IMG/VR virus record: IMGVR_UViG_3300028805_000045
Length of the DNA: 64,000 nt
Strand: one strand, 5' to 3'
Origin: a virus
Lineage: Duplodnaviria; Heunggongvirae; Uroviricota; Caudoviricetes
The position numbers and the translations under genes are program-made. Below, in pieces: positions 38,436 through 52,733 of this stretch. A model generated the notes under the pieces. That model worked only from the letters and a program-made list of their open reading frames with translations. It made no database searches and was not told the origin of the DNA. Every line of letters starts with the position of its first letter. Positions within the stretch are counted from its first letter, which is position 1.

Positions 38436-38524
38436 TGGCGGGCAGAGTAGGATTTGAACCCACGGACGCTCGTCACGCCAACGGTTTTCAAGACCGCCGC
38501 CTTAAGCCACTCGGCCATCTGCCC
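38436..38524 (-). tRNA. tRNA-Ser (anticodon TGA), type II
   Basis: Hand-folded cloverleaf: acceptor GGGCAGA/TCTGCCC, anticodon loop CTTGAAA, long variable arm, T-loop TTCAAAT, G73, CCA encoded. Confidence 0.8.
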
Positions 38525-38533
38525 ATAAAACAA

Positions 38534-38638
38534 GATAGTTATGGAAGGGATTCGAACCCTTGTCTCTTACTTTTTACGGTAAGTGTCTTAGTCCCCTAGA
38601 CAACCTCGGCTAGTATTTGCTGTAAGAGCCGAATAACT
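38534..38638 (-). tRNA. Atypical tRNA-like element
   Basis: D, anticodon (loop CGTAAAA) and T arms are recognisable. It is flanked by the 9-bp inverted repeat GATAGTTAT/ATAACTATC and carries an extra 5' hairpin containing CTCTTACAGCAAA. There is no canonical acceptor stem. Confidence 0.25.
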
Positions 38639-38646
38639 ATCTTAAT

Positions 38647-38721
38647 TGGAGCCGCCGATAGGATTTGAACCTACAACATCTCGCTTACAAGGCGAGCCCA
38701 CTACCATTGTGATACGACGGC
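38647..38721 (-). tRNA. tRNA-Thr (TGT)
   Basis: Acceptor GCCGTCG/CGGCGGC, loop CTTGTAA, CCA encoded. Confidence 0.8.
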
Positions 38722-38797
38722 ATATTTCTAGACTCTTCCATATTAACCATATATGTAATAAAATGTCGGTAAGTATATTGCTGTAAGAGTCATAATT

Positions 38798-39235
38798 TTA
38801 TTTATAAAGTTGAAATTTTTTTGAAATTTTCCAAGCAACTTCATCTGGAAGCGGCTTAAATCCAATACATGTCAATGTTCTTCCAATTCCATTTTCATCA
38901 ATTTTTTCAGGAGTAAGCTCAGTTAAACAAGCATCCCAAATTAAAAAATAATCTTTATTTTCTTTTAATCCAAGTTCTTTTGCTATATTTGTAGCTTTCA
39001 TTAGTTGATTATAATTTTTAGCTTCACATACTGTTTTTGTAAAAACTCCTTTAAACCATTGATCCATTACTTCTTTATCTAATAAAACTGAAACATTATA
39101 TCCAGTTTCATTTTCAATTGCGGGAGTATTACGAATTTGATTTGATATAAAAGCAAAAGAAGCATGTGCTACTTGCGCGGCTAATTTTCCTGCACTCATA
39201 TTTAAATCTTTACGCGCAATAATTATTTGTCTCAT
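38798..39235 (-). CDS. Peptidyl-tRNA hydrolase, PTH2 family
   Basis: IIARKDLNMSAGKLAAQVAHAS matches the PTH2 consensus (VRTDLGMGKGKIAAQCSHAA). Confidence 0.65.
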   Translation of the reverse strand: MRQIIIARKDLNMSAGKLAAQVAHASFAFISNQIRNTPAIENETGYNVSVLLDKEVMDQWFKGVFTKTVCEAKNYNQLMKATNIAKELGLKENKDYFLIWDACLTELTPEKIDENGIGRTLTCIGFKPLPDEVAWKISKKFQLYK

Positions 39236-39424
39236 AAAATCACCATAAGTTCTAGGCTCGTAATTAATTATTAATTTAAAACGCTATCTCTAAGTATTTC
39301 ATAAAATAATTTTTATTACATTTGCTGTAATGAGCCTATGTTTATTTATAAGCAAGATCGTTATATATAATTTATTATCGCCCATCAAATTATCTCCAAT
39401 ATTAATTGCTGTAACGATCTTGAA

Positions 39425-39499
39425 TGGCAGGCGAGGTAGGAATCGAACCTACGTTAGCGGAGTCAAAGTCCGTTGCCTTAGCCGCTTGGCTACTCGCCT
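39425..39499 (-). tRNA. tRNA-Gln (TTG)
   Basis: Acceptor AGGCGAG/CTCGCCT, loop CTTTGAC, T-loop TTCGATT, CCA encoded. Confidence 0.75.
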
Positions 39500-39507
39500 A
39501 TAAGTAA

Positions 39508-39581
39508 TGGGCAAGAAGGGAGTTGAACCCTCAAAACCCAGATTCTTAGTCTGGTACCTATGCCAATTCGGTTACTCGCCC
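39508..39581 (-). tRNA. tRNA with anticodon loop CTAAGAA (anticodon AAG, a Leu codon family; short variable arm, A73)
   Basis: Acceptor GGGCGAG/CTTGCCC and a perfect anticodon stem CCAGA/TCTGG. Position 34 is an unusual A. Confidence 0.55.
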
Positions 39582-39788
39582 TCACTCTCGAACATATCAA
39601 GTAGTTCTTCTTCAGAAAGAACTTGTTCAAGCTCAGAAAGCTGAATATCTACTACGTTTTTAGTCCCATAATATTCAGTAGCTCGCTGAGCGGCTTCTCC
39701 ATAAGAAGTTGCGGCGACAATGCCAGAATCAGTACGAGGTTCATTGTCAATTTCATCCCAGTAATTAATAACGTAGTAATACATTTTC
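39572..39788 (-). CDS. Small acidic hypothetical protein (start reassigned to MKMYYYV so that it does not overlap a tRNA)
   Basis: The N-terminus of ORF-track entry 39572..39931 is a translated tRNA. Confidence 0.4.
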
Positions 39789-39868
39789 ATTCTCCTTTCA
39801 ATACAAGTCACATTTAAAATAGCTGCATTTTTTAGTGCGGTTTTTGTTAAGATTGCTGTTAATGACTT

Positions 39869-39959
39869 TGGCGGGGAGGGTGGGATTCGAACCCACGCAC
39901 CAGTTACCTGGCCTAATTGCTTAGTAGGCAACCCCCTTCAACCACTTGGGTACCTCCCC
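39869..39959 (-). tRNA. Type II (Ser-like, G73) tRNA with anticodon loop CTACTAA (formal anticodon ACT; the loop contains CTA)
   Basis: Acceptor GGGGAGG/CCTCCCC is a perfect stem. Long variable arm. CCA encoded. The acceptor closely resembles that of the CTA tRNA at 43958. Confidence 0.55.
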
Positions 39960-40471
39960 ATATAAGCCGATGTATTAATATTGCGGCAACATTAATACTT
40001 TCTGTATATGCTATATAAAGCCGCGCAATGTATAGGCTATCGGCTTAGCCCATTATAATACGGTTTCGAGGTCGTACACCGAAAACCCCAACATGTTGTT
40101 AGCGTTTTTTATTTTACTCTCACGCTGTTGCGATCGCTATATACCGCACTACGTCTTAGAGGACTTTATTTTGCCGCATTCGGGGCATGAAGTGTTCCGT
40201 TCTAAGAATCTTCTCTCCGCGAATTATGTTCTTTTTATATACCGCAGGAACATAGCTAATTAGCGGTTTCTCCCCTATCTTTCAGCGGCCGACCTACTCA
40301 ATAGGCAAGAAATATATATAAGAAGCGGTGACGTATACTTTGGCCGCAATTTGTTTCTAACAAGAGATTACGTCTCACACTGCCAGTCATCAAGTTCTTT
40401 AGCTTGCTTGACACGGCTCCAAGAGGAAGAAAACACAGTACGACTCATTTTACGCATAATCATCACTTTCC

Positions 40472-40522
40472 TTTCTCTCTTTCTTACATATATATTATAC
40501 TATAAATTTTATTTATAGTCAA
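40472..40522 (-). promoter_or_regulatory. Promoter cassette copy driving an ORF-poor segment and the downstream tRNAs
   Basis: Full cassette including the CTTTCTTACATATATATTATAC leader. Confidence 0.5.
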
Positions 40523-40839
40523 ATATTAATTCCATGAGATTTCATTGCGGATTTTAAAGAATTATTTGTAAGAGTTGTATTAACACTACTACAAGTGGTA
40601 GTAGCTGTATCTCCAGATTTGCATGTTACTTGATTCCACCAAGGATTAGGATCTCCAGTAGATTGCCATGTAATACTAGGAGTAGCAGTAATTTGTGTGC
40701 CGATGCAGTTAATACAAGAGTTCTGCCAAGGAGCCATAATTGCTCCACAAGAAGGGCATTTCCAGCCATATTGAATCGGTAATGAAACTGGTTTATCAGA
40801 ATTAGATTTAACAGTATATGTTGTTGAAGTACTATCCAT
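40519..40839 (-). CDS. Cys-rich small protein
   Basis: 106-aa ORF. Confidence 0.4.
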   Translation of the reverse strand: MDSTSTTYTVKSNSDKPVSLPIQYGWKCPSCGAIMAPWQNSCINCIGTQITATPSITWQSTGDPNPWWNQVTCKSGDTATTTCSSVNTTLTNNSLKSAMKSHGINI

Positions 40840-40841
40840 TT

Positions 40842-41357
40842 TTAATTCTCCTTTAAAAATTTATCTAAAATAGGAACATTGACATTAGAATTAATTACTG
40901 AACCCACTTTTCGTGGTTGATATAAAGCAATAGTTTGTAGAAGATTACGATCAATTCCATAAATTAAGTCATTAATTTCATCTTCAACTTCTGCACGAGG
41001 TCTACAAAAATCTTTATATTCTTCTTTTCGTTTTTCGATTTCAATTAAAGCATTATTTCGAGTTATATCTTCTATTTCAATTGTATATAAGACTTCATCG
41101 TTACGTTGTTTACATTTACAACAAATATAAGTTTCATAGATTTTTATAACTAAACGACCAAGCTGTTTTTCTTTTTCTCGTTTTTTATTAGCTTCATTAT
41201 AATAAACATTCCAAGAAAATATAAAATATGGTGAAGAATCCCACCAAAAATGCTCACATTCTTTTGGAACATAAAGTGTTGGAACTTCTTCTACTTTATT
41301 ATTGTTTTTCTTTTTTGTAAACCAGCTCATTTTATTCTCCTTTAAATGGTAGGGCAT
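40842..41357 (-). CDS. Hypothetical protein
   Basis: 171-aa ORF. Confidence 0.45.
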   Translation of the reverse strand: MPYHLKENKMSWFTKKKNNNKVEEVPTLYVPKECEHFWWDSSPYFIFSWNVYYNEANKKREKEKQLGRLVIKIYETYICCKCKQRNDEVLYTIEIEDITRNNALIEIEKRKEEYKDFCRPRAEVEDEINDLIYGIDRNLLQTIALYQPRKVGSVINSNVNVPILDKFLKEN

Positions 41358-41423
41358 GGTGGAATCGAACCATCCTGACCAGTTTATAAGACTGGCGTAA
41401 TCATACCAATATACGAATGCCCC
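41347..41423 (-). tRNA. tRNA-Ile (TAT)
   Basis: Acceptor GGGGCAT/ATGCCCT, loop CTTATAA, CCA encoded. Confidence 0.7.
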
Positions 41424-41434
41424 ATATAGAGGAA

Positions 41435-41620
41435 TTAATCCTCTTCGCCAAAATAGTCATCTATAGTTTTAGGACTAAAACTTAAAGCAATTGCGAATCG
41501 CCGAAAAAAACTCACTAATTCACTCATAGTTAAATCTTCTGAACAGTGAAAGGTTAAATCTACATCAGGATAATTTTCTGGATAAAATGAAAAACTTAAA
41601 GTTGCATTTTTTTCTTCCAT
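41435..41620 (-). CDS. Hypothetical protein
   Basis: 61-aa ORF. Confidence 0.35.
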   Translation of the reverse strand: MEEKNATLSFSFYPENYPDVDLTFHCSEDLTMSELVSFFRRFAIALSFSPKTIDDYFGEED

Positions 41621-41627
41621 TTTATTT

Positions 41628-41675
41628 CTCCTTTCTTACATATATATTATAACATAATTTTAAATTAAAGTCAAT
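41628..41675 (-). promoter_or_regulatory. Promoter cassette copy
   Basis: Motif match. Confidence 0.5.
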
Positions 41676-41709
41676 TATTTATACGTTCTTCAATTAATAT
41701 AACTTCATT

Positions 41710-41880
41710 CAGACATATGTTCTCCAAAATAATCATACACTATTTGTAAACAATTATCAAACATATCGTTTGCTTTTTCATAGGCACATTGAGTAGTATA
41801 ATCTTTCCCAAAAAAATCGTCATCAGAAATACGTAAATTTTCTAAACGGTCTAATAAATCTGTTACAAACATCATAGCAA
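41710..41880 (-). CDS. Small hypothetical protein
   Basis: Manual 56-aa ORF MMFVTDLLDRLENLRISDDD... Confidence 0.3.
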
Positions 41881-41889
41881 TAATTCTCC

Positions 41890-42210
41890 TTAATAAGAAA
41901 AATGTTTAAAGCATTCTGGTTCTTCTTTTTCAAAAAATCCACCGCGTTCTTCATTCCATTCAAAATAGGTACGACGATCTTTTGTTGCACTATCATAACA
42001 GCCGGGATATAAAGTTAAAATAAATCCGGCTTTAAACATATACTCATGAATATCACACCAATTTTCATGCATAGCGCGAACTGCGGTTTCATATTCATAG
42101 TAAAAGCCTACGTCATCTTGTGTGCCACAATCAGGCCAGCCGCATTCATTTGGTGCAGGAATTTTTGAGAATAAAAGAATACGATAAATGGGCTTTTGAT
42201 CTTTATACAT
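41890..42210 (-). CDS. Hypothetical protein
   Basis: 106-aa ORF. Confidence 0.45.
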   Translation of the reverse strand: MYKDQKPIYRILLFSKIPAPNECGWPDCGTQDDVGFYYEYETAVRAMHENWCDIHEYMFKAGFILTLYPGCYDSATKDRRTYFEWNEERGGFFEKEEPECFKHFSY

Positions 42211-42227
42211 ATTATCACCTTTCTTGA

Positions 42228-42298
42228 AGCTTCATAGAGGAATTGAACCTCTATATAGTGTTTACGAAACACTTATGTTGCCATTACATTAATGAAGC
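42228..42298 (-). tRNA. tRNA-Thr (CGT)
   Basis: Acceptor GCTTCAT/ATGAAGC, loop TTCGTAA, T-loop TTCAATT. CCA is not encoded. Confidence 0.7.
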
Positions 42299-42299
42299 G

Positions 42300-42627
42300 T
42301 TTGATGGCTGATTTTTCTGCTGTCCGCCAGCCATCGGCACATACGTCCGATAAGAACACAGGTTTTTCCGTTGCCTGCCAACCGCCGGCACATTCGTCCG
42401 GTAAGTCTGTCGGATTTTAGGTGTCAGCCCACCGGTAATAATTGTTACCTCAAAATAAGCCAGATATACCAATAACATTTGTATATCTTTAACGACCGGG
42501 CTCACGGCGACCACCTCCTTAAGATTCCCTAGTGGTTCGTCTGGGATACGAGAATTTTCCTTTCCGATTTGGTTCGCGACCCGCTTCGGCGGCAACACCT
42601 TTATACATTCCCATTCTCAAAGGTTAC
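42300..42627 (-). ncRNA. GC-enriched ORF-free segment between two tRNAs, candidate structured RNA
   Basis: Contains a tandem pair of roughly 48-nt repeats (GCCAGCCATCGGCACATACGTCCGATAAG / GCCAACCGCCGGCACATTCGTCCGGTAAG) and a CCGC-UUCG-GCGG tetraloop hairpin. The overlapping ORF 42284..42598 is judged spurious. Confidence 0.3.
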
Positions 42628-42703
42628 TGGTCGGAGTGGTGGGACTTGAACCCACGACTTCTTGATCCCAAATCAAGCACGCTACCAACTGCGCTACACC
42701 CCG
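42628..42703 (-). tRNA. tRNA-Pro (TGG)
   Basis: Acceptor CGGGGTG/CACTCCG, loop TTTGGGA, CCA encoded. Fused directly to the promoter leader. Confidence 0.8.
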
Positions 42704-42736
42704 TTCTTTACATATCTATTATACTATAATTTTAAC
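42702..42736 (-). promoter_or_regulatory. Promoter cassette copy fused directly to tRNA-Pro
   Basis: The leader ...ATATGTAAAGAA runs straight into the tRNA 5' end CGGGGTG. Confidence 0.5.
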
Positions 42737-42743
42737 TAAAAGT

Positions 42744-42814
42744 CAAATATTAAAGCGTCCAGTTGGAGTTGAACCAACTAACAAGGATTTTGCAGACCCT
42801 CTCCCGACCGACGA
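42744..42814 (-). tRNA. tRNA-Cys (GCA)
   Basis: Acceptor GCGTCCA/TGGACGC, loop CTGCAAA, T-loop TTCAACT. Confidence 0.75.
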
Positions 42815-42942
42815 GAATTGGACGCATATGCACAAGATAATAAGCAGTTGACAATCTGCATCTCTTATATTAGTGATAGCTGCCTGTTCTATCCTTTATT
42901 ATCTTATGCTCCGCTCTTTCTACACATGGCAGATGAGTTAAA

Positions 42943-43014
42943 CAGGAAGGTAGGGACTCGAACCCCAATCAACGGTTTTGGAGACCGTCATGCTACCAAT
43001 TGCACCACCGACCT
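42943..43014 (-). tRNA. tRNA-Trp (CCA), imperfect acceptor
   Basis: Perfect anticodon stem ACGGT/ACCGT with loop CTCCAAA. T-loop TTCGAGT. The acceptor has 2 mismatches. Confidence 0.55.
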
Positions 43015-43251
43015 ATGATATGATAGGTTGATCCTGGTGTTTCCTCTTTTAAATACGACAAACTTGAATAAAATTTCCAGTTTCTATTCTTAAAAATTAC
43101 CGTATCCCTATCTAACGACATTTCAGCCGCTGTTTACAGTTCTACTGCCTTTCGGAATAAACAGCAATCCCCTGGTGGCATGGGTTGGTAACGATCCAAC
43201 CTATGTGGATTTTCAGTCCACTGCTAATCCGTCTCAGCTACCGTGCCATAA

Positions 43252-43339
43252 TGGGTGGAAAGACAGGACTTGAACCTGCACTTCTCTAATGAGAAATCGG
43301 GGCCACAACCCGACGCGTATACCATTTCGCCACTTACCA
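43252..43339 (-). tRNA. Type II tRNA with anticodon loop TTGTGGC (anticodon GTG, His-type; C73)
   Basis: Acceptor TGGTAAG/CTTTCCA (1 mismatch). Long variable arm TTCTCATTAGAGAA. CCA encoded. Confidence 0.45.
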
Positions 43340-43350
43340 CATATATCTAA

Positions 43351-43422
43351 TGCGAGTGGTGGGAATTGAACCCACTGTACCTTGATTAAAAGTCAAGTGC
43401 CTTACCGGTTGGCTACACTCGC
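43351..43422 (-). tRNA. tRNA-Lys (TTT)
   Basis: Acceptor GCGAGTG/CACTCGC, loop CTTTTAA. Confidence 0.8.
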
Positions 43423-43425
43423 ATA

Positions 43426-43501
43426 TGGAGCTGAGGACGGGACTTGAACCCGTGGTCTTGCGCTTACCAAGCGCACGCTTTACCAACTAAGCTACGACAG
43501 C
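43426..43501 (-). tRNA. tRNA-Thr (GGT)
   Basis: Loop TTGGTAA and T-loop TTCAAGT. The acceptor has 2 internal mismatches. CCA encoded. Confidence 0.65.
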
Positions 43502-43503
43502 AT

Positions 43504-43620
43504 TGGAGCAAGTACACGGATTTGAATCGCGGATACTGTGATTAATGGTGGAAGACCCAAGATTCAAACTTGGCCCTACTTGCGCGAGTATGTGCCTTCA
43601 CTACACCAATCTCCCAAGTC
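43504..43620 (-). tRNA. Degenerate tRNA-like sequence
   Basis: Acceptor GCAAGTA/TACTTGC and a T-loop TTCAAAT are present but no anticodon arm can be folded. Confidence 0.2.
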
Positions 43621-43785
43621 ACATGCTTTTCCAACTAAACTAATGGCGCATATAAATCACATCCATTCTCCCGATTCTCCAAATGGAACCTATCCACCGT
43701 AATTAACTTTTCATTAATTACCCTTATAGCGTCAACGAAGGATATAGACTATTTTATTGATCGTACTTTTATCTCATGTGATTAA

Positions 43786-43859
43786 TGGAGCAAGTAGCGG
43801 GAATTGAACCCGCGACGTCTGCATGGCAAGCAGAAGTTTTACCGCTAAACTATACCTGC
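43786..43859 (-). tRNA. tRNA-Gly (GCC)
   Basis: Acceptor GCAGGTA/TACTTGC, loop TTGCCAT, CCA encoded. Confidence 0.8.
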
Positions 43860-43865
43860 ATAAAC

Positions 43866-43955
43866 TAGACCATTTAATTTATAGGAATCGAACCTATTCA
43901 AAAATTTTTTACAGAAATTTTTTTTAACCAAAATTAATTGCCGAAATGGTCTATA
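43866..43955 (-). tRNA. AT-rich tRNA-like element (loop CTGTAAA, i.e. GTA)
   Basis: Outer stem TAGACCATTT/AAATGGTCTA and T-arm ATAGG-TTCGATT-CCTAT, with an AATTT/AAATT stem bearing a CTGTAAA loop. The spacing is non-canonical. Confidence 0.2.
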
Positions 43956-43957: not shown

Positions 43958-44047
43958 TGGCGGGGGAGCTCGGATTTGAACCGAGAATGACGCCCTCAGA
44001 AGGCCCAGGTTTTAGAGACCTGCGTGTTGCCGTTACACCACTCCCCT
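43958..44047 (-). tRNA. Amber suppressor tRNA, anticodon CTA; type II scaffold (long variable arm), Ser-like
   Basis: Anticodon stem CAGGT/ACCTG with loop CTCTAAA (CTA = revcomp of plus 44013-44015). T-arm CTCGG-TTCAAAT-CCGAG. 3' end is ...CTCCCCCGCCA. The loop flanks GGTCT.CTAAAACC resemble this phage's tRNA-Ser(TGA) (GGTCTTGAAAACC) and the E. coli serU/supD Ser tRNA. Confidence 0.75.
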
Positions 44048-44263: not shown

Positions 44264-44349
44264 TGGTGGGCCGCGGTGGAATCGAACCACCTGAGTCATT
44301 GACAGCTGATTTACAGTCAGCGCCGCTTCCATATACGGTATACCGACCC
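44264..44349 (-). tRNA. tRNA-Tyr (GTA), type II
   Basis: Anticodon stem GCTGA/TCAGC, loop CTGTAAA, long variable arm, T-loop TTCGATT, A73, CCA encoded. Confidence 0.75.
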
Positions 44350-44422: not shown

Positions 44423-44498
44423 TGGTCTCCCGTGAAGGATTTGAACCCTCATTAATAGATCCGTAGTCTATTGTCCTATTCCGTTAGACGAACGGGAG
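44423..44498 (-). tRNA. tRNA-Arg (ACG)
   Basis: Acceptor CTCCCGT/ACGGGAG, stem ATAGA/TCTAT, loop CTACGGA. Confidence 0.8.
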
Positions 44499-44789: not shown

Positions 44790-45104
44790 TCAGTATTCTT
44801 TGTATCCATAATGAGTAAGTAATTGCCGCATATTCTGCACACCAACAGGATTCATGCTATGAATATGAAAACCAACAAGTGGAATTTGATGTTCTACAAT
44901 ATATTTACAAATATCATATCCAGAACCATCAAGTCCAATATCATGGTCAAGGTCAATGAAAATTTCATCATTTTTCGTACAACAATCTAATATATCAATT
45001 GTACTATGATAATCTCGGCATACCTGAACTTGGTATTGATTACTTTTTAATATGTTAGCCCAAGTACATTCACGAATATCATCTATATAAATGTAAATTT
45101 TCAT
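44790..45104 (-). CDS. Hypothetical protein
   Basis: 104-aa ORF. Confidence 0.45.
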   Translation of the reverse strand: MKIYIYIDDIRECTWANILKSNQYQVQVCRDYHSTIDILDCCTKNDEIFIDLDHDIGLDGSGYDICKYIVEHQIPLVGFHIHSMNPVGVQNMRQLLTHYGYKEY

Positions 45105-45109: not shown

Positions 45110-46270
45110 ATTCTCCTTTAATTTATAAAATGCCAAGCGTTTCAGGCTCTTTTTAACGGTTTCTGTGTTTCCGTATTCACGCATAGTCCATTAGTACCAT
45201 GGGCTTTTGGACTCACCCTATGTAGCTGACAGTATTTCAACTTCCCCACTCATAAGGGATGGTCGATATTTTTATACCGCATCATCCACTCTGCGGTTTA
45301 AATTTTTGCGGGTGTAGATTTTCACTACACATGATAAATAAGTGAATTGGCCGAGTTCTTCTTATTTATCATAGTTACTTTTTGAAGCATTTGCTCTTAT
45401 CTTCTGGAGAAGCACCCTAACACTATGTGTCTACTGATACAATGCACTTTGCATTAACATTGCCACTGTATCCGCTACAGATTATTGAACAATCAAATGA
45501 TTGTTTTTTAATTCTGCTTGCGTTTATTCCACCACCGCAAATATTATTTATATAGCACAAAACCTAAGACACCAAAGATTAGAAAAACGCATCCGCATCA
45601 TCCACTCTGCGGTTTGACGAGAAATTCTTCCCATCTGCTAAAATGCCCCTTACTCTTATTTCTTTAGTATAAAAGACACTTTGTTTAACAATTACTGCGA
45701 CCTTCGCCGTACCTCATAATTCTTCTTGAATATTATGCTACTATTGAAAACCGGGCTGTGGCATAAGTAGCGACCTTATACCATCCGATTCCCGCGCCTA
45801 GCGCCGAGAATAGAGAGGATTGTTTACCTCTAAGTTTCACCCAAACCATTCAGCAGAAATTCATATCTGTATTTGTATTTCTATTTACATACAAATTTCT
45901 GTCTTGGGCTACTCCAACCGCAAACCTTACTTATATGCCATTTCTGGCTTTCATCGACATAGCGACTTGTGGTTTTTCCAGAGTTTGTATTGGCTACCAC
46001 CCCAATACCTTATCTGGATTTGGCCTGGCTCTTAACCTGGCTTCCTATTGTGTCGCCGTAAGGAATCGTGCATTTTCAAGCGAATTACTTGGCGCATACT
46101 CTTAACATTTGGAGTTTCTCCGCTATCGCTAACTATTACTAGTTTTGCGGCCGCACTTGCCTAGTATCCCGGGCAGTAGTGTATGGCTGTTATTCAAGTA
46201 TCCCAAGCTGCGTGGTTAGCGCATCTTCACTTGGTTCATAATTGCTAAACAAAATGTCTTTTACATTTCG
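45110..46270 (-). ncRNA. About 1.15 kb of GC-enriched, ORF-free sequence downstream of a promoter cassette: candidate long structured RNA(s) or an acquired element
   Basis: No ORF of at least 60 aa on the minus strand. A duplicated 23-mer CCGCATCATCCACTCTGCGGTTT occurs twice. Two hairpins covary: GTGTAG-ATTTTCA-CTACAC versus GTGTGG-ATTTTCA-CCACAC. Confidence 0.3.
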
Positions 46271-46507: not shown

Positions 46508-46585
46508 TGGTGTCCAGTAAAGGATTTGAACCTTCAAAAACATGGGCCTAAACCATGCGCGTCTGCCAAATTGCGCCAACTGGAC
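46508..46585 (-). tRNA. tRNA-Leu (TAG), short variable arm, A73
   Basis: Acceptor GTCCAGT/ACTGGAC, stem CATGG/CCATG, loop TTTAGGC. Confidence 0.65.
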
Positions 46586-46664
46586 ATAATTCGCTTCTAT
46601 TCAGTTTTTCTTTTTTTTCCACAATTTGCTAAAAGAGTCGTATGAAGCGATAACAGTAGACTTT

Positions 46665-46740
46665 GGTATCCTCGGTGGGAGTCGGACCCACAGAACTTCG
46701 GGTTTGAGCCGAATACATATGCCAATTCTGTTACGAGGAC
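46665..46740 (-). tRNA. tRNA-Leu (CAA), short variable arm, A73
   Basis: Acceptor GTCCTCG/CGAGGAT, loop CTCAAAC, T-loop TCCGACT. Confidence 0.65.
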
Positions 46741-46746: not shown

Positions 46747-46824
46747 TGGTAGCGAGAATGGGATTCGAACCCACACTACAGAGATTTTAAGTCTCTTGAC
46801 TCTGCCAAATTGGTCTACCTCGCC
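46747..46824 (-). tRNA. tRNA-Leu (TAA), short variable arm, A73
   Basis: Stem AGAGA/TCTCT, loop CTTAAAA. The acceptor has 2 G-U pairs. Confidence 0.65.
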
Positions 46825-47000: not shown

Positions 47001-47074
47001 TGGAGCGATATGCGGGACTCGAACCCGCGTCACCGGCTTGGAAGGCCAGGGCACTACCGCTATACCAATACCGC
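47001..47074 (-). tRNA. tRNA-Gly (TCC)
   Basis: Acceptor GCGGTAT/ATATCGC, loop CTTCCAA, T-loop TTCGAGT. Confidence 0.75.
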
Positions 47075-47105: not shown

Positions 47106-47182
47106 GTGGTCGCAACACCTGGACTTGAACCAGGGACTTTCATCTTATCAGGATGACACGCTGACCAACTGCGTCATGTTGC
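47106..47182 (-). tRNA. tRNA-Ile (GAT)
   Basis: Acceptor CGCAACA/TGTTGCG, loop CTGATAA. Confidence 0.8.
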
Positions 47183-47183
47183 G

Positions 47184-47411
47184 TTAAGATTTTTTAGCAA
47201 TAAATTTCATTTCAATTTTAGTATTAGCAGGAATAGAATATGAAAGAAAATAATTGTCGGGAAGAGAACACATAATGCTAGAACCTTCAATTGTAAAACA
47301 ATTAATACAATCTTCATGGCCTCGCTGTTTCAAAGTATCTATTAACCAATTATAAATAGACTTAACAAATTCAGTTTTCGTGGCTTGAATAGATAATTCT
47401 TTCTTTTCCAT
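47184..47411 (-). CDS. Hypothetical protein
   Basis: 75-aa ORF downstream of a promoter cassette. Confidence 0.4.
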   Translation of the reverse strand: MEKKELSIQATKTEFVKSIYNWLIDTLKQRGHEDCINCFTIEGSSIMCSLPDNYFLSYSIPANTKIEMKFIAKKS

Positions 47412-47429
47412 AAAATCATTTCCTTTCTC

Positions 47430-47469
47430 TTGATATATTTATTATATCAAAAAATCTTAAAAAAGTCAA
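47430..47469 (-). promoter_or_regulatory. Promoter cassette copy
   Basis: Motif match. Confidence 0.5.
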
Positions 47470-47475
47470 ATATAC

Positions 47476-47530
47476 AAGACCCGCTATAAACGCGCCCGGC
47501 CATCGGGCATCTTTCCCCATAATGGGGAAA
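47476..47530 (-). terminator. Tandem hairpins (terminator-like) that follow a truncated T-arm-like sequence
   Basis: Minus-strand hairpins CTTTCCCC-ATTAT-GGGGAAAG and GCCCG-ATGGC-CGGGC. The upstream GTTAG-TTCGATT-CTAAC looks like an orphan T-arm. Confidence 0.35.
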
Positions 47531-47594
47531 GGTTAGAATCGAACTAACTATCACGTGCTCTCTATGCAAAAGAAGAATTGCTGACAGGTCTTAA

Positions 47595-47668
47595 TGGCGG
47601 CCGATGAGAGAATTGAACTCCCCTGGGGTGGTTAACAGCCACCTGCCAAACCACTTGGCGAATCGGCC
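47595..47668 (-). tRNA. tRNA-Asn (GTT)
   Basis: Acceptor GGCCGAT/ATCGGCC, stem GGTGG/CCACC, loop CTGTTAA. Confidence 0.8.
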
Positions 47669-47689
47669 ATACGAAAGGGATTTCTCCCT

Positions 47690-47730
47690 TTCAACATATT
47701 TATTATAGCATAATTTTAAATAAGAGTCAA
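47690..47730 (-). promoter_or_regulatory. Promoter cassette copy upstream of tRNA-Asn
   Basis: Motif match. Confidence 0.5.
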
Positions 47731-47733
47731 ATA

Positions 47734-48288
47734 TTAGGGCCACTCGCCTAATGGCTTACCAAGATTTGCACGCTCAACATTAGTATTATAGAAAACACCT
47801 TCTGTTGCTGGGCCAGTTAGAACTTCTTCTGCAATATCTTGATATAGAGTACTAATAATACCATGACAATCGTTTAGATTATCTGCGGCAAACTGCACTA
47901 CGCAATTATTAAATACGACGTAAGTTGTACCAATCCACTGATAACCTTCTTCAGCAGGACAAACAGAGTATGCATAAGCAGGATTACCTTTGAATGCAGT
48001 ATCAAATAGTTCAACCTTACTGGTAAAGGCGCGATTAGTTGGAGTTCCATCAATCATAATTTTTAGTTTAACATTGCCAAAACCTACTTCTTCTGGCAAA
48101 ATTTGCTGTAAAGCCGCGACTTTATCGCCGTTATTACAAGCAAGAACTACTGTTGGATGTTCGCCACTAAAATCAACATTGAAAGCAATTAGAGGATCTC
48201 CGTCAAATAGAGCTTCTAATTTTCTTACTGTAATCGTCCAAGGTGGTAGAATTTTTAATCTTACATTATTCATTTCAGTATACCTCAT
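47734..48288 (-). CDS. Hypothetical protein
   Basis: 184-aa ORF. Confidence 0.45.
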   Translation of the reverse strand: MRYTEMNNVRLKILPPWTITVRKLEALFDGDPLIAFNVDFSGEHPTVVLACNNGDKVAALQQILPEEVGFGNVKLKIMIDGTPTNRAFTSKVELFDTAFKGNPAYAYSVCPAEEGYQWIGTTYVVFNNCVVQFAADNLNDCHGIISTLYQDIAEEVLTGPATEGVFYNTNVERANLGKPLGEWP

Positions 48289-48299
48289 AAATTAGAATA

Positions 48300-50440
48300 G
48301 CAGTAGGTTGCTAGCCACACATCAGAGTCAAATAAAAACTAGACAGACTTATATACATTCTATCCATTGAACTATTAGCCGCGTAAGCGACTAAGTGAGA
48401 TTCGAACTCACATCCCTTGTTATACAGACAAATTAAGAAAATATTGCTGACCTGTCTAAATGGTGCGGCAAATAGCACTCTAAGCTATACATCATTATAG
48501 GGACGTCTCCGTAAACTATAAGGTGTCTCTCACGTAAGCATTACTTTGGTCGCTTACTGGTTGCCACATATAAAGCCGAGCACACCCTCGGCGTGGGTTA
48601 TTAGGGCTGTTATCCTTATAAGGGATACATTTTTTCAACTCCATTACAGGCACCCTACTATTAGAGATTATAGTGTGTAACCGCACACTTACTTACTTCG
48701 CCTGTCTTTTTATTATAGTCTGCCGCTAAGCCGCATGCTACATATCATATTTGATTATGAAGTATTGCTTAGAAAGTTCATTCATAAGCACTTCTCCCAA
48801 ATACGCCAGTAGTAGTTTAGTAAAAATCCGTGTTTTCCGCAGACTTGCATCGTAAAGGAGGCGATGCGAATGGCGGCCCCAGCGGGTTATGATCCCGCGA
48901 TCTCGGCGGTGACAGCGCCGTATTCTAACCAGCTGAACTATGGGGTCATATAGATAGTCTTTAAAGCTAAAGGCTTACGTCATAATCTCACATTGGCATT
49001 ACATATTTATACTGCTGAAGCCACATTTGATCTCAAAGCACGATGGTACCCACATCCGGGAACGATCCGGAATTTTCACCTTGAAAGGGTGACGAACTAA
49101 CCAATTATTCGATGCGGGCATAATTCCAGTGTTGGCGCACCGGAACGACGAGATGCAGTTGACTAGTTATTATTGCGCCAACAATAATAACAACGAATTT
49201 TTAATTTCTATGTTTGTCTTTCATCAACTTTATCTCTCACGTTTTTACACAGATACGTGTCAACTGTTTGCTCTTCATTGGAATCGAACCAATCCTACTC
49301 GGTGGTATATCCGGGCGTGCCTTCCACTACACTATCAGGGCATATAGGCGTTTGATAACCCAGGTTGCGCCCAAACTCTGGGCATGTGTTGTACTTTCAC
49401 ATGATGAAAATGCGGCGACCACATAAACCGCGTTCAAGAGATTCAGGTCATGACTCCCTTCTCTTGGAAGAGCACTAGGATTCCCTTCCCATTTTCATTT
49501 TACTATACTGCGTCAGAATGCTGTTCCTACATTCATTGTTAAGGGTTAGCTTTCACCCTAACCGTTTACAGCGGTCGCATTTTAGCCTACACAATGTGAC
49601 GGGTGCGGAGGGCCCTTCCACCGCTTTTCTGATTTGTTAACAATCAGTAAGGACTTCACCCATTACTTTCCTTCCATCCCGTTTTTCGGCCGTTGTACTT
49701 CTTACGTGGTACATCACGCTTGCCTGATATTCTTCCAATTTAACGCGCAAGTCCGCTAAATTTCCTATTGGTCTCAGTGGAATAGGACGCTGCTTCGATT
49801 TTTTGTTTAGGCCAGAAATCAAGACAACTGGCACTTTTGACTATCGAGGTGGCCCATATATTAGAAACCTGCACTAATATGGCGATTCTTCTAATATACG
49901 TATCTCAATCTGGTCTTCGTCCATCCCCACTTCCCGTTTCCGAAGTGTAGCGCACCATCAACTACGAGTGTGACGGAAACTCACATTTCTTCTTTTACGT
50001 CCTTACTGTTTGGACTTGGCTGTTCTTCAAACTCCATTTAACCCATTCTTCCTAGCGTGTGGTCTAAAGCTTCTTAACCTTAGTTTTTCAAAACTTACAC
50101 GCTAATTACGGCATTTGGGCACCTAATAGGCGCAATGATTTGCGCATTGCTTTAAGCTCCCTTAGCACCGATGCTCTGCCTGACTACCAGAGCTACAGCA
50201 GTCTGGCCCTGCTTGCCGACATCGTTATTTTATATACCGCGAACGATGTGCGGTTGCGCTCTCCAGTGGCCGCCTTCGAGCGGGGCTAGATTCTAAGTGC
50301 ATCAGAGTTTTTTGACACCGTGGCCTTCCTCCGCCACCGCCGGGAGTCGAACCCGGGCAGCGTCGTTACCTTTTCGCCCTAACATCACTACGTCGATGTT
50401 TCTCACCTTGAACGAATACCTTCTAACGGTCTGGTATCAA
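48300..50440 (-). ncRNA. About 2.1 kb GC-enriched, essentially ORF-free island holding one tRNA-Asp, orphan tRNA-like arms and repeated hairpins
   Basis: Only scattered short ORFs. The 14-mer GGTCATGACTCCC(T/G) recurs at 49441 and 50791. An orphan T-arm lies at about 48409-48425 and a GCCC..-type 5' half at about 49262-49345. Confidence 0.3.
48871..48947 (-). tRNA. tRNA-Asp (GTC)
   Basis: Stem CGGCG/CGCCG, loop CTGTCAC, T-arm GCGGG-ATCATAA-CCCGC. The acceptor has 1 mismatch. CCA encoded. Confidence 0.6.
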
Positions 50441-50444
50441 CCGT

Positions 50445-50520
50445 TGGTCGCGGGCCTGGGAGTCGAACCCAGTCCTTGAGGCTTATGAGGCCCATGACTT
50501 AACCGCTTGTCCTGTCCGCG
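50445..50520 (-). tRNA. tRNA-Met (CAT), or Ile2
   Basis: Loop CTCATAA, T-arm CTGGG-TTCGACT-CCCAG. The acceptor has 1 mismatch. Fused to the promoter leader. Confidence 0.65.
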
Positions 50521-50524
50521 ATAC

Positions 50525-50573
50525 TCTCTCTTTCTTACATAATTATTATATCATAATTTTTGTTTTAAGTCAA
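50525..50573 (-). promoter_or_regulatory. Promoter cassette copy fused to tRNA-Met
   Basis: Minus-strand TTGACTTAAAACAAAAATTATGATATAATAATTATGTAAGAAAG. Confidence 0.55.
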
Positions 50574-50584
50574 ATAACTAGACT

Positions 50585-50625
50585 CGAAATTTCATGCTCT
50601 ACCTCTTGAGCTACTCACGCTATTG
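50585..50625 (-). pseudogene. 5' tRNA fragment (acceptor plus D-arm) abutting a promoter cassette
   Basis: GCGTGAG-TA-GCTC-AAGAGGTA-GAGC... is followed directly by the TTGACT -35 element. Confidence 0.35.
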
Positions 50626-50684
50626 CATAAGATGGGAGTTGAACCCACGACACTGAAAGTGTTGTTTGCTGTAAGAGTCTATAA

Positions 50685-50757
50685 TGCGCACTGCTGGACT
50701 CGAACCAACGACGTCTTGCTTGTAAGGCAAGCCTTCTCCCAACTGAAGTAAGCGCGC
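50685..50757 (-). tRNA. tRNA-Val (TAC)
   Basis: Acceptor GCGCGCT/AGTGCGC, stem CTTGC/GCAAG, loop CTTACAA. Confidence 0.7.
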
Positions 50758-50900
50758 ACGCGTGCAACATCCATATTACGGTCATGTTTCAACCTTTAAC
50801 GAGTTGATGCTGCCAGTATCTCGGGAAAGAGATCGGGTCATGACTCCCGTTTTTCAGATTTCTCCTACTTTGTCGTCTCCCAGTCATCCTCGCGACATTC

Positions 50901-50975
50901 TGGTACTCCACCAGGGAATCGAACCCTGAATCCACTGATTAAGAGTCAGTTGCATTACCATTGTGCTAGTGGAAT
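50901..50975 (-). tRNA. tRNA-Lys (CTT)
   Basis: Stem ACTGA/TCAGT, loop CTCTTAA, T-arm CAGGG-TTCGATT-CCCTG, CCA encoded. Confidence 0.75.
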
Positions 50976-51232
50976 ATAAATCTCACAATTTACCATTCCA
51001 TATGCCCTTATGTTCTGGTCGTAGGGAATTGGTGAGTTTCTACCCTACTGTTTCCTCCTCAACGGGCGAGGTGTCCGGCGTACTCTCTGGTGGCCGCGTT
51101 TCACCTTTTGGGAGTTGCCGCTCCCGCACTACTTGCGGCAACAAGTAGATTGGCATATAAAGACTTCTTGCGTTTAGGGACTCCAAGGCTTGCGCATCGC
51201 CGGTTTACAGTCCGTTCAGTCATTCGGACAAA

Positions 51233-51308
51233 TGGTGGAGCTAATGAGATTCGAACTCACTACTTCTTCCTTGCAAGGGAAGCACTCTACCAACTGAGTT
51301 ATAGCCCC
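51233..51308 (-). tRNA. tRNA-Ala (TGC) with a G3-U70 pair
   Basis: Acceptor GGGGCTA/TAGCTCC, loop CTTGCAA, CCA encoded. Confidence 0.8.
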
Positions 51309-51526
51309 ATTTTATAAATTATCATTCTTTTATTGTCAATTTGACCTGGATTATATTTACGAAGAAAGTTTCCAAACTCATAATCATAGAATAAATAATT
51401 ACAAGTAGGACAACGAAAAGAATAATAATCTCCATCACGGTCGAGGCGATTTGAAGTCTTAACTTCAGTTTTAGACTTTACAATTACATGTAGACATTGC
51501 GGGCACCGAAACGGATACATTTTCAT
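51299..51526 (-). CDS. Small Zn-ribbon protein
   Basis: 75 aa with CPQC...CPTC. Confidence 0.45.
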   Translation of the reverse strand: MKMYPFRCPQCLHVIVKSKTEVKTSNRLDRDGDYYSFRCPTCNYLFYDYEFGNFLRKYNPGQIDNKRMIIYKMGL

Positions 51527-51534
51527 TTCTTTCC

Positions 51535-51582
51535 CTTCTTTCTTACATATTTATTATATCATAATTTTTAAGAGAAGTCAAA
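51535..51582 (-). promoter_or_regulatory. Promoter cassette copy
   Basis: Motif match. Confidence 0.5.
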
Positions 51583-51587
51583 TTCTT

Positions 51588-51761
51588 ATTATTTTAATGT
51601 TTACAATTTCAACCCTGGTCAAGTCAAAACCAATATTACGAATATAATTAAAAACTTCTTTTTTTGAAGGTTTTTTAGAATAGAGAACTACAAAATCTCG
51701 GGTCATTTCTCCATATTTCAATGATACTATACACCGCCAGTTCTCTTTCTGCATTTTTCTT
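51588..51761 (-). CDS. Small hypothetical protein
   Basis: Manual 57-aa ORF MQKENWRCIVSLKYGEM... Confidence 0.3.
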
Positions 51762-51808
51762 CCCCTTTCTTACATAAAAATTATAACATAATTTTATTTT
51801 TAAGTCAA
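51760..51808 (-). promoter_or_regulatory. Promoter cassette copy
   Basis: Motif match. Confidence 0.5.
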
Positions 51809-51812
51809 ATAA

Positions 51813-52010
51813 TTATTTTTTTGAAGTTCGATAATCTTCACGAGAATGAATGGTGTTTTGATATTTACATTCGGGACAATAAATATATTGTTCATAATCC
51901 CATTGACAATGATTATTCTGAATATCACTATCTTCAAAAGTAAAAACGCATTCACAATTCTTACAAGTCATTTGGTAAGGAGCATGCCCATGTTTAATAA
52001 CTTTAATCAT
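51813..52010 (-). CDS. Small Zn-ribbon protein
   Basis: 65 aa with CKNC...CPEC. Confidence 0.45.
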   Translation of the reverse strand: MIKVIKHGHAPYQMTCKNCECVFTFEDSDIQNNHCQWDYEQYIYCPECKYQNTIHSREDYRTSKK

Positions 52011-52153
52011 CGTAACATTCTACCTCGATTCCCATCTGTTCACAAAAAGTACTTTCAACTTCATACCAGGTATCACGAGAAATATACTCTTCTTCCATTT
52101 CTTCAATAGTACGATCACAAAGGAAATCATCAAGATAATCAGGCATTTTCTCA
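52010..52153 (-). CDS. Small acidic hypothetical protein
   Basis: Manual 47-aa ORF MPDYLDDFLCDRTIEEMEEEY... that overlaps the next gene by ATGA. Confidence 0.3.
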
Positions 52154-52159
52154 TCCTCC

Positions 52160-52203
52160 CTCTTTACATAAAAATTATATCATAATTTTAGTACAAAGTC
52201 AAG
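52160..52203 (-). promoter_or_regulatory. Promoter cassette copy
   Basis: Motif match. Confidence 0.5.
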
Positions 52204-52214
52204 AAAAAATCCAT

Positions 52215-52650
52215 ACTAAATTTCAAGTAAATCGACTATATAAGATTGGGTGTCTTTAATCTCTCACTATCAATTTAGTATGGATAGTGCAATTAATATT
52301 CGCGTAATATCAATTGCGGCCGCATATCTCACAGTTGCCGCGACTGGCAATAGTGCTTATATCGAAAGCAATCCGAGCGGATTCTCGCGCCGTATTCTCC
52401 GCGCCCACTTGGTTAAGGTAGTCAGCTCCTTCCAACTTTCATTCTCGAAAAAGTTGGCCTACGTCGTAGTATTACTCCGGATTAATTTACATGGCTACGA
52501 GCTCATGGCGGTTATTAACGCAAACCAAGCCCCGGCGCTTACTTTATTCTCCGCTCCCCTCGCTAGCAGGTTCGCGGGCGGGATGAAATAAGAAAACCCT
52601 TAGTTGTAAAAAGTCCTATCGGGTTGCGCATTGTAAAGAGGCGTGATAGG
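52215..52650 (-). ncRNA. GC-enriched ORF-free segment, candidate structured RNA
   Basis: Begins with the 12-bp inverted repeat CCATACTAAATT...AATTTAGTATGG. The plus-strand ORF 52250..52591 is judged spurious. Confidence 0.25.
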
Positions 52651-52656
52651 CTCTTA

Positions 52657-52733
52657 CTGGTACTCCCTCTGGGATTCTAACCCAGGACACCGGACTTAGA
52701 AGGACCGTGCTCTATACAACTGAGCTAAGGGAG
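52657..52733 (-). tRNA. tRNA-Arg (TCT)
   Basis: Acceptor GCTCCCT/AGGGAGT, loop CTTCTAA, T-arm CTGGG-TTAGAAT-CCCAG, CCA encoded. Confidence 0.7.

Follow-up and report, generated by a model that had tools for sequence, protein, structure and literature searches.

A large tRNA array with reshaped leucine, histidine and amber suppressor tRNAs in a probable TAG-recoded gut or rumen phage

Background

Large transfer RNA (tRNA) arrays and the recoding of the amber stop codon TAG to glutamine (Gln) are already known in phages. In the code-15 gut phages (Borges et al., bioRxiv 10.1101/2021.08.26.457843; Phassvirus, PMC10607447) TAG is concentrated in the structural genes and stands for Gln, the suppressor tRNA lies in a region of standard code, no phage synthetase is seen and the tRNAs are many. 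Borges et al. expected non-canonical suppressors, and stated the charging and use of the suppressor as an open question. Here we analyse a locus that resembles these phages in each of these traits, the tRNA array at positions 38436-52734 of a 64,000-nucleotide (nt) stretch, called the window below, of the Caudoviricetes record IMGVR_UViG_3300028805_000045 in IMG/VR. Its suppressor, with the anticodon CTA (CUA in RNA), differs from what is described for the code-15 phages by a variable region of 20 nt, a conserved CUGA core and a body like that of tRNA-Trp.

Other members of the array also have described counterparts. Bacteriophage T5 (Demerecviridae) has a large array interspersed with small open reading frames (ORFs), as the window does, and its 77-nt tRNAL2 (UAA) shares a short variable loop, A73 and the D-arm GAAUUGGCAUA with the leucine (Leu) tRNAs of the window. 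According to the T5 tRNA-region record AJ604531, a CUA version of tRNA-Leu is an effective amber suppressor. In bacteria a short-armed tRNA-Leu is exceptional; one is known from Streptomyces coelicolor and is not charged by E. coli LeuRS (PMC6614811). Phage tRNA clusters contain also the (8/4) tRNA-His and allo-tRNAs (Mukai et al. 2017, PMC5389517), which resemble the histidine (His) tRNA of the window in their setting, His anticodon and nonstandard shape. The (8/4) phage tRNA-His is built of an acceptor stem of 8 base pairs (bp) and a 4-bp T-stem, and has A73 or U73 and no G-1 (PMC5389517).

Results and discussion

The array and its relatives

It is highly probable, in our judgement, that the locus is a real array of a TAG-recoded gut or rumen phage with about 31 functional genes and two relics, in which codon-matched adaptors stand beside a CUA suppressor and the sense code is standard. 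ARAGORN and the Rfam covariance model RF00005 (gathering score 29 bits) were run on the window. The former called 31 tRNA genes between 38436 and 52734, all of them, like every gene in the window, on the minus strand; the latter gave 30 matches at or above the gathering score (34-70 bits, best E 3e-13). Two of these were absent from the ARAGORN list, namely Met(CAT), with 43.5 bits at 50448-50520, and, at 38537-38610, a degenerate element with 34.2 bits. Cys and Tyr, called by ARAGORN only, fell below the gathering score; also missed by Rfam was a 65-nt AT-rich element at 43873-43937, which reached 30.4 bits with laxer filters. The union comprises 33 tRNA-type elements, about 31 of which are credible tRNAs and two conserved tRNA-like remnants.

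The original prediction, made by eye, had claimed at least 30 tRNA genes, and this count holds. Every anticodon named there was recovered, and so were the oddities: the short-armed Leu tRNAs with A73, the long-armed GTG tRNA with C73, the Ser-like tRNA with the loop CTACTAA and the acceptor-stem mismatches, which occur in Trp, Thr(GGT), Phe, His, Met and the suppressor. Phe and Glu, thought to be missing, are both present (Table 1) and were probably overlooked because their T-loops begin with A. The set spans all 20 amino acids together with the amber suppressor. Of two supposed copies of Tyr(GTA), the one at 44264-44349 is real, while the element at 43873-43937, with its varying anticodon loop, is not convincing as a tRNA-Tyr.

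CCA is encoded in most of the genes, and the G+C content is about 41% in the array and about 31% in the window. Most tRNAs are preceded by a UAU leader (T-3 in 22, A-2 in 26 and T-1 in 21 of 32), which may be a processing signal and whose position fixes the 5' ends of His and Tyr. The true 5' end of Tyr, following the leader, is the G at 44349, one base before the ARAGORN call, and the gene corrected in this way has, apart from one G7.G66 mismatch, the normal form of a bacterial long-armed tRNA-Tyr.

Relatives were sought with the cREC_REC protein encoded within the array (44790-45104), which gave 11 IMG/VR loci with 50-94% identity, most of them with arrays of similar tRNA gene order. A further relative, L036, is situated on a contig of 166.7 kb and shows 87% identity over 6.1 kb. 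When the array and the structural genes were compared with GenBank phages by megablast, only tRNA fragments of 36-39 nt matched and no relatives were found; with sensitive blastn, the queries Leu(TAG), His and CTA tRNA returned nothing or fragments only from the same phages, and a comparison of the CTA tRNA with E. coli genomes gave no match.

Meaning of TAG and of the sense codons

Reading TAG as a sense codon increases the minus-strand ORF content of the window from 13,653 to 17,090 amino acids, which agrees with the code change noted from the sequence earlier. The structural genes contain 7-15 in-frame TAGs each: 13 in 23253-25298, 7 in the tail protein gene 53901-55946, 15 in 57805-59571, 8 in 59584-61647 and 9 in 61715-63958. 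The protein with 13 TAGs found no relatives in viral contigs and no PHROGs family. TAG is dense at 23.2-25.3 kb and 53.2-64 kb, and the genes at about 27.3-53.1 kb, those inside the array included, have no in-frame TAG at all, a distribution consistent with a change from the standard code to TAG-as-Gln in the course of infection.

Judged by alignment with homologs, the codon is read as Gln. In the tail protein, two conserved columns with TAG have Q in 109/120 and 89/120 homologs, and in the closest homolog each of the 7 TAG sites is occupied by Q; opposite the TAGs of a second protein, Q stands in 7/9 aligned ortholog positions. For the sense codons, conserved columns of the tail protein were compared with more distant homologs, and TTA corresponded to L in 7/8, CTT to L in 4/4, CAT to H in 2/2, AGT to S in 3/5 and TAT to Y in 21/21 cases. 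These few columns give no sign of a changed sense codon, and TAG alone appears to be reassigned. The proposal that the set substantially reprograms decoding is therefore supported in part, for TAG but not for TTA, CTT, CAT and AGT.

It could be argued that the odd tRNAs reassign sense codons, their architecture being in conflict with the textbook class of their anticodon. There is a precedent in the nematode long-armed tRNAs with Gly or Ile anticodons, which are described as decoding, in vitro, an alternative code for leucine (PMC3333845). We hold this to be extremely improbable here, in view of the columns just given, the invariant A73 of the Leu family and the G-1:C73 of the His family described below; moreover, TTA makes up 53% of the Leu codons, and its reassignment would rewrite every protein.

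The anticodons match the A/U-rich codon usage of the phage, a comparison that the earlier reading had proposed. Each of the four Leu anticodons is the exact Watson-Crick partner of one of the four most used Leu codons (TTA 53%, CTT 23%, CTA 13%, TTG 7%), AGT is preferred to AGC among Ser codons (27% vs 9%), and Ile(TAT) directly reads ATA, which accounts for 24% of Ile codons. Each odd tRNA seems to retain the identity marks of the amino acid of its anticodon: A73 and a Leu-type D-arm in Leu, G-1:C73 in His, and a weak 1:72 pair, G2, G10 and G73 in the suppressor. The set is best read as a codon-matched, self-sufficient supply of adaptors with a single stop-codon reassignment.

The amber suppressor tRNA

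The 90-nt suppressor has its CUA anticodon in a 7-nt loop, CUCUAAA, with U33. Its acceptor stem starts with an A1.C72 mismatch followed by G2-C71 and G3-C70, and it further has G10 and a G73-CCA end. The D-arm, with a 4-bp stem and a 7-nt loop, is of the short-armed type; the 20-nt variable region, GGCCUUCUGAGGGCGUCAUU, contains the family motif given below and forms a stem of 2-4 bp, after which six nucleotides are unpaired. Pairwise comparison gave, for its 5' half, 70-77% identity with phage tRNA-Trp(CCA) vs 53-59% with tRNA-Gln, and the anticodon loop is one base away from that of Trp (CUCCAAA to CUCUAAA). Derivation from tRNA-Gln, considered for the likeness of the acceptor stem to that of the window tRNA-Gln, was dropped, as the body is pairwise nearer to the phage tRNA-Trp.

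The identity rules of E. coli glutaminyl-tRNA synthetase (GlnRS) comprise a weak 1:72 pair, G2, G3, G10, G73 and U35. The acceptor features of the suppressor fit these rules, and charging with Gln is predicted. The E. coli suppressor su+7 is a tRNA-Trp with CCA changed to CUA that GlnRS reportedly charges with Gln, as Yaniv, Folk, Berg and Soll are said to have found in 1974. The phage suppressor resembles it in the Trp-like body, the one-base anticodon change, G73, the weak first pair and TAG standing for Gln; it differs in the inserted variable arm, and GlnRS charging is in its case suggested by analogy.

A pattern scan of IMG/VR for long CUA tRNAs, in which G73 was imposed by the pattern, gave 58 loci. 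These are tRNA-rich and short, and the ORF-gain test for TAG recoding is uninformative there. At least 37 distinct long CUA tRNAs (88-95 nt) in viral contigs have the same body as that of the window. In these 37 the pair 1:72 is never G-C, G2 is present in all and G10 in 36, and the core of the variable region, CCU-CUGA-AGG, has CUGA in 31, UUGA in 4 and CUGC in 2. The CUGA core is kept while the remainder of the tRNA diverges. Covariation of the variable stem within the family was not significant (93/148 cells paired vs 89.5 +/- 3.5 in shuffles), and the element is to be taken, from these alignments, as a conserved sequence motif with a short stem of 2-3 bp and not as a proven hairpin. The term 'variable loop' does not occur in the searchable text of the recoded-phage papers examined, and the long-armed CUA family with the CCU-CUGA-AGG core seems undescribed in the literature searched.

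G73 together with a 20-nt variable region would also suit a Ser-type (supD-like) suppressor, with TAG meaning Ser, and CUA tRNAs on a tRNA-Ser framework do occur in L049, L054, L055, L058 and L059. For the window this is very improbable: TAG stands opposite Gln and not Ser, the first pair of the tRNA is A1.C72, its D-arm has a stem of 4 bp and a loop of 7 nt, its body is Trp-like, and its variable stem of 2-4 bp with six unpaired bases is unlike those of the Ser tRNAs of the window.

Two further observations concern CUA tRNAs of other contigs. The genes in the five loci just named and in L065 are built like a true tRNA-Ser, with G1-C72, a D-arm of the Ser type and a well-paired variable arm, and these viral contigs may read TAG as Ser. 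CUA tRNAs of two lengths, 73-78 nt and 91-94 nt, occur together in about ten loci (L039, L042, L056, L060, L072, L081-L086), in L042 only 3 nt apart, which suggests that the short and the long form are not redundant.

The long-armed tRNA-His

No canonical His gene had been found by eye, and indeed the only His gene has a 17-nt variable region, with a 5-bp arm (UUCUC-AUUA-GAGAA), and a 3-bp D-stem with a large D-loop, where a canonical tRNA-His has a variable loop of 4-5 nt and a 4-bp D-stem. It is nonetheless, by its sequence features, a true tRNA-His. The gene reads g|TGGTAAG...CTTTCCA|C|CCA, with an encoded G-1 opposite C73 as in the canonical tRNA, and the UAU leader stands before G-1 and not before T1, so that G-1 belongs to the mature molecule.

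The ortholog in L001 has a variable stem 1 bp longer and a compensatory change in the anticodon stem. Those in L002, L010 and L036 share the acceptor stem and T-arm of the window gene but combine them with a normal short variable loop and a 4-bp D-stem, from which a recent exchange of the central body follows. The acceptor mismatches recur in L002, L010, L030 and L036. A pattern scan of IMG/VR gave about 11 loci with a long-armed tRNA-His of 85-90 nt, all with G-1 (11/11 distinct genes), C73 and CCA. Their variable stems are unrelated in sequence, and several are capped by GNRA loops. The same pattern gave only about four genes in 185,579 species-representative genomes.

With its 7-bp acceptor and 5-bp T-stems, G-1 and C73, marks read by HisRS, this tRNA is distinct from the (8/4) tRNA-His and allo-tRNAs on all points compared (stems, G-1 and N73). 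A 7/5 long-armed tRNA-His with G-1:C73 seems undescribed in the literature searched.

The short-armed Leu tRNAs

The tRNAs with the Leu anticodons AAG, TAG, CAA and TAA are 74-78 nt long and have A73, a 3-bp D-stem and variable loops (GUUUU, GUUCU, GUAGU and UUUU; 4-5 nt) within the class I range of 4-6 nt; RF00005 gave none of them a long variable arm. Their D-loops follow the pattern (G/C)AAUU(U)GGCA(U/G)A, which we take to be that of a normal bacterial tRNA-Leu D-arm. The loop AAUUGGCA on the 3-bp stem is of the Leu type, and the D-loop GAAUUGGCAUA is common to T5 tRNA-Leu. With TTA and CTT aligning with Leu, and with the CUA variant in the T5 record noted as an effective suppressor, these tRNAs appear to carry Leu.

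The design is found throughout the clade, with an identical Leu(CAA) gene in L036 and identical Leu(TAG) genes in L001 and L036. Family statistics for 35 distinct sequences, confined to the acceptor stem, T stem and position 73, showed A73 in 35/35 and pairing in 32-35/35, with as many as six standard pair types at one position. An identity of about 80% links Leu(AAG) to genes of 77 nt that carry the annotation tRNA-Leu in T5-like phages, and it has matches in 363 GenBank phage records, so the short-armed type exists in cultured phages as well. The window departs from T5 in having four short-armed Leu tRNAs (reading UUA, UUG, CUU and CUA) and no long-armed one, and its phage is unrelated to T5 at the DNA level, AT-rich, TAG-recoded and known from metagenomes. 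In S. coelicolor tRNA-Leu(CAA) is a single gene beside long-armed Leu tRNAs and A73 is not an identity element, whereas in the phage family A73 is invariant.

Other irregular tRNAs

Ser(ACT), with A34 in the loop CTACTAA, pairs in Watson-Crick manner with AGT and is present in L001 and L036 too. In Phe, Asp and Glu, A54 and U58 of the T-loop are swapped; the swap recurs for Phe and Asp in L001 and L036 and for Glu in L001 and L002, and 27/167 tRNAs of the clade have non-standard T-loops. In Arg(TCT), GU replaces G18G19 in the D-loop, the T-loop being TTAGAAT (A56); this combination is conserved in relatives, and U19-A56 is likely a covariation. The acceptor mismatches of Trp recur in L001. The mature ends of Lys(TTT) are probably 43351-43422 plus A73.

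The element at 43873-43937 has a good T-arm, nearly no D-arm and a non-conserved anticodon loop; it is 90-93% identical in L001 and L036 and shows a compensatory T-stem change in L035. That at 38537-38610 has a mostly unpaired acceptor stem and G33, with related elements at the same array position in L001 and L002.

These two elements look degenerate, and several tRNAs have acceptor mismatches and sub-par Rfam scores, which could mean that the odd members are decaying pseudogenes or relics and that the host supplies the real tRNAs. We regard this as quite improbable. Leu, His, Ser(ACT) and the CTA tRNA are kept across relatives whose neighbouring protein is only 50-94% identical, with pairing and identity nucleotides retained and with compensatory stem changes, which is why they are not taken for pseudogenes. 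The mismatches are themselves conserved (Trp and His, loci above), CCA is mostly encoded, and the Leu anticodons track codon usage exactly. The odd members are better described as conserved phage tRNA lineages, judging from these comparisons: T5-type Leu, G-1:C73 His, A34 Ser and tRNAs with swapped T-loops.

Long tRNAs of isotypes with normally short loops were also called by ARAGORN in L032 (Ile 83, Asn 86 and Gln 84 nt), L028 (Asn 90 nt) and L019 (Thr 82 nt). The gain of a variable arm in phage arrays may thus not be limited to His and the suppressor.

Interpretation of the array

For a phage with such a codon-matched set and one reassigned stop codon, the following course of infection is the most likely. 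The TAG-free zone (about 27.3-53.1 kb) would be translated under the standard code of the host before the TAG-rich structural genes are needed. Host synthetases would charge the phage tRNAs, and the host Gln-charging system would, as in the su+7 analogy, load the Trp-bodied suppressor, upon which TAG would be read as Gln in late genes. The reshaping of variable arms, T-loop and acceptor stem, together with the RNA-repair genes, might sustain translation when host tRNAs are attacked or depleted. Reshaped tRNAs could evade tRNA nucleases, by analogy with the T5 tRNA-Lys variant that escapes PARIS, an experimental precedent for nuclease-resistant phage tRNAs (PMC11464382).

Several points weigh against this interpretation. 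The route to Gln-tRNA(CUA) is in doubt if the host is one without GlnRS, and charging of the short-armed Leu tRNAs depends on the host enzyme, as the failure of E. coli LeuRS on the Streptomyces tRNA indicates. Some homologs may be code-15 translations, which would inflate the Q count, and the sense codons were judged on few columns of one protein. The function of the tRNAs is read from sequence, and nuclease evasion is argued from analogy. The window covers 64 kb of a genome likely near 165 kb, and other tRNAs, suppressors or a synthetase may lie outside it; among about 45 ORFs scanned in the window no aminoacyl-tRNA synthetase or release factor was found.

The array might also serve for codon-usage compensation only, the odd shapes being tolerated neutral drift with no role in defence. 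The anticodon set does mirror the preference for A/U-ending codons, and close relatives freely interchange the long and short versions of His, Leu and the suppressor, which suggests that either form works. Neutral drift agrees less well with the conservation of the CUGA core in an otherwise diverging suppressor, the rarity of long-armed tRNA-His in the species genomes vs the viral loci, the RNA-repair genes located with the array and the PARIS precedent. We think this explanation somewhat unlikely, but it has to be kept in mind.

At the other extreme, gut and rumen phage arrays would systematically add or remove the variable arm as a functional handle. The CCU-CUGA-AGG core would then be recognised by a factor of the host or the phage controlling charging, stability or the timing of TAG-to-Gln decoding, and the long His and short Leu tRNAs would be invisible to tRNA-targeting nucleases yet readable by host synthetases. 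This proposal, with both its suppressor and its nuclease part, is tentative and on balance unlikely.

Under the reading preferred here, that of a codon-matched array with one reassigned stop codon, the window points to a recurrent suppressor design recognisable from sequence by a Trp-like body, a weak first pair and the CUGA core. It indicates also that the variable arm is not fixed to an amino-acid family in phages, since it has been lost in Leu and acquired in His and the suppressor. Such genes can be mislabelled or missed by annotation pipelines, in which isotype is scored against architecture. The changes of the variable arm bear, finally, on the idea that tRNA-targeting defence shapes phage tRNAs.

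Genes and RNAs around the array

Positions of all features are collected in Table 1. The genes in and around the array include those for a peptidyl-tRNA hydrolase, the cREC_REC protein, a polynucleotide-kinase-like protein, two phosphoesterases, an RNA ligase and an RlaP nucleotidyltransferase, and further a Band-7 protein and a DUF2828 protein. The RNA-repair-type set at 25454-38065 (minus strand) also contains a DUF5662 protein and an HNH endonuclease. PDB sequence searches with the DUF2828 protein and the RNA ligase gave no match.

Table 1 Features of the tRNA array and its flanks, with positions in the window
Feature	Position	Strand	Remarks
tRNA-Arg(TCT)	52658..52734	-	ARAGORN, Rfam 59.1 bits; CCA encoded
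abiF RNA motif	52614-52650	-	Rfam 44.2 bits; 7 nt downstream of tRNA-Arg(TCT)
tRNA-Ala(TGC)	51233..51308	-	ARAGORN, Rfam 69.4 bits
tRNA-Lys(CTT)	50901..50975	-	ARAGORN, Rfam 60.3 bits
tRNA-Val(TAC)	50684..50758	-	ARAGORN, Rfam 62.6 bits
tRNA-Met(CAT)	50445..50520	-	Rfam 43.5 bits; elongator-like, A6.C67 mismatch, A73, CCA encoded
tRNA-Glu(TTC)	49044..49119	-	ARAGORN, Rfam 50.6 bits; T-loop ATCGTTC
tRNA-Asp(GTC)	48871..48947	-	ARAGORN, Rfam 52.4 bits; T-loop ATCATAA
tRNA-Asn(GTT)	47595..47668	-	ARAGORN, Rfam 52.1 bits
tRNA-Ile(GAT)	47107..47183	-	ARAGORN, Rfam 65.4 bits
tRNA-Gly(TCC)	47001..47074	-	ARAGORN, Rfam 59 bits
Short-armed tRNA-Leu(TAA)	46747..46824	-	ARAGORN, Rfam 52.1 bits; 78 nt, A73, D-arm AAUUUGGCAGA
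Short-armed tRNA-Leu(CAA)	46664..46740	-	ARAGORN, Rfam 50.8 bits; 77 nt, A73, T-loop TCCGACT (C55)
Short-armed tRNA-Leu(TAG)	46508..46585	-	ARAGORN, Rfam 52.2 bits; 78 nt, A73
ROOL RNA	45678..46258	-	Rfam 323 bits, full length; between Arg(ACG) and Leu(TAG)
cREC_REC (cyclic-phosphate processing receiver domain) protein	44790..45104	-	E 4e-18; inside array
tRNA-Arg(ACG)	44423..44498	-	ARAGORN, Rfam 54 bits
tRNA-Tyr(GTA), long-armed	44264..44349	-	ARAGORN; below Rfam gathering score; A73, CCA
Amber suppressor tRNA(CTA)	43958..44047	-	ARAGORN, Rfam 52.1 bits; 90 nt
AT-rich tRNA-like element	43873..43937	-	ARAGORN; Rfam 30.4 bits with laxer filters; 65 nt, 17% GC
tRNA-Gly(GCC)	43786..43859	-	ARAGORN, Rfam 67.5 bits
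tRNA-Thr(GGT)	43426..43501	-	ARAGORN, Rfam 64.5 bits; mismatches 5:68 U.U, 6:67 C.C
tRNA-Lys(TTT)	43350..43423	-	ARAGORN, Rfam 69.6 bits; CCA not encoded
Long-armed tRNA-His(GTG)	43252..43340	-	ARAGORN, Rfam 48.8 bits; 88 nt, G-1 at 43340, C73-CCA
tRNA-Phe(GAA)	43173..43247	-	ARAGORN, Rfam 47.6 bits; T-loop ATCGTTA, C5.A68 mismatch
tRNA-Trp(CCA)	42942..43015	-	ARAGORN, Rfam 54 bits; G73, mismatches U4.U69, C5.U68
Skipping-rope RNA	42836..42903	-	Rfam 53.8 bits; between Trp and Cys tRNAs
tRNA-Cys(GCA)	42754..42825	-	ARAGORN; below Rfam gathering score; U73, 1 nt between acceptor and D stems
tRNA-Pro(TGG)	42628..42703	-	ARAGORN, Rfam 70.2 bits
tRNA-Thr(CGT)	42228..42298	-	ARAGORN, Rfam 63.3 bits
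tRNA-Ile(TAT)	41347..41423	-	ARAGORN, Rfam 47.9 bits; found in relatives too
Long-armed tRNA-Ser(ACT)	39869..39959	-	ARAGORN, Rfam 59.2 bits; 91 nt, A34, G73-CCA
Short-armed tRNA-Leu(AAG)	39508..39581	-	ARAGORN, Rfam 56.8 bits; 74 nt, A73, CCA not encoded
tRNA-Gln(TTG)	39425..39499	-	ARAGORN, Rfam 65.2 bits; A1-U72, G73
Peptidyl-tRNA hydrolase (PTH2 family)	38798..39235	-	E 7e-22; inside array
tRNA-Thr(TGT)	38647..38721	-	ARAGORN, Rfam 65.4 bits
Degenerate tRNA-like element	38537..38610	-	Rfam 34.2 bits
tRNA-Ser(TGA), canonical long-armed	38436..38524	-	ARAGORN, Rfam 57.8 bits
Polynucleotide-kinase-like P-loop protein	37586-38065	-	Array flank
Metallophosphoesterase	36963-37589	-	Array flank
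DUF2828/DUF7788 protein, PHROGs label 'RNA-binding'	33879-35423	-	PHROGs
RlaP nucleotidyltransferase	32353-33246	-	RNA-repair-type gene set
RNA ligase (phrog_968)	27090..28487	-	E 1.5e-69

Elsewhere in the window PHROGs and Pfam identify the tail protein, a prohead protease, PhoH, a Sak4-like protein and a methyltransferase, and the products of 3581-5860 and 7497-9302 look, on reading of their sequences, like type II topoisomerase subunits.

Among the other RNAs, the abiF motif takes its name from an abortive-infection gene. In L002 (934-976) it shows 91% conservation, and the phage copy could be a decoy. ROOL RNA has been reported near tRNAs and in prophages (PMC5737381). Two sub-threshold matches to Y-RNA-like (YrlA) RNA lie between tRNA genes on the minus strand, at 48334-48434 (22.3 bits) and at 50568-50668 (35.3 bits), the latter being 72-79% conserved in L030, L052, L067 and L076.

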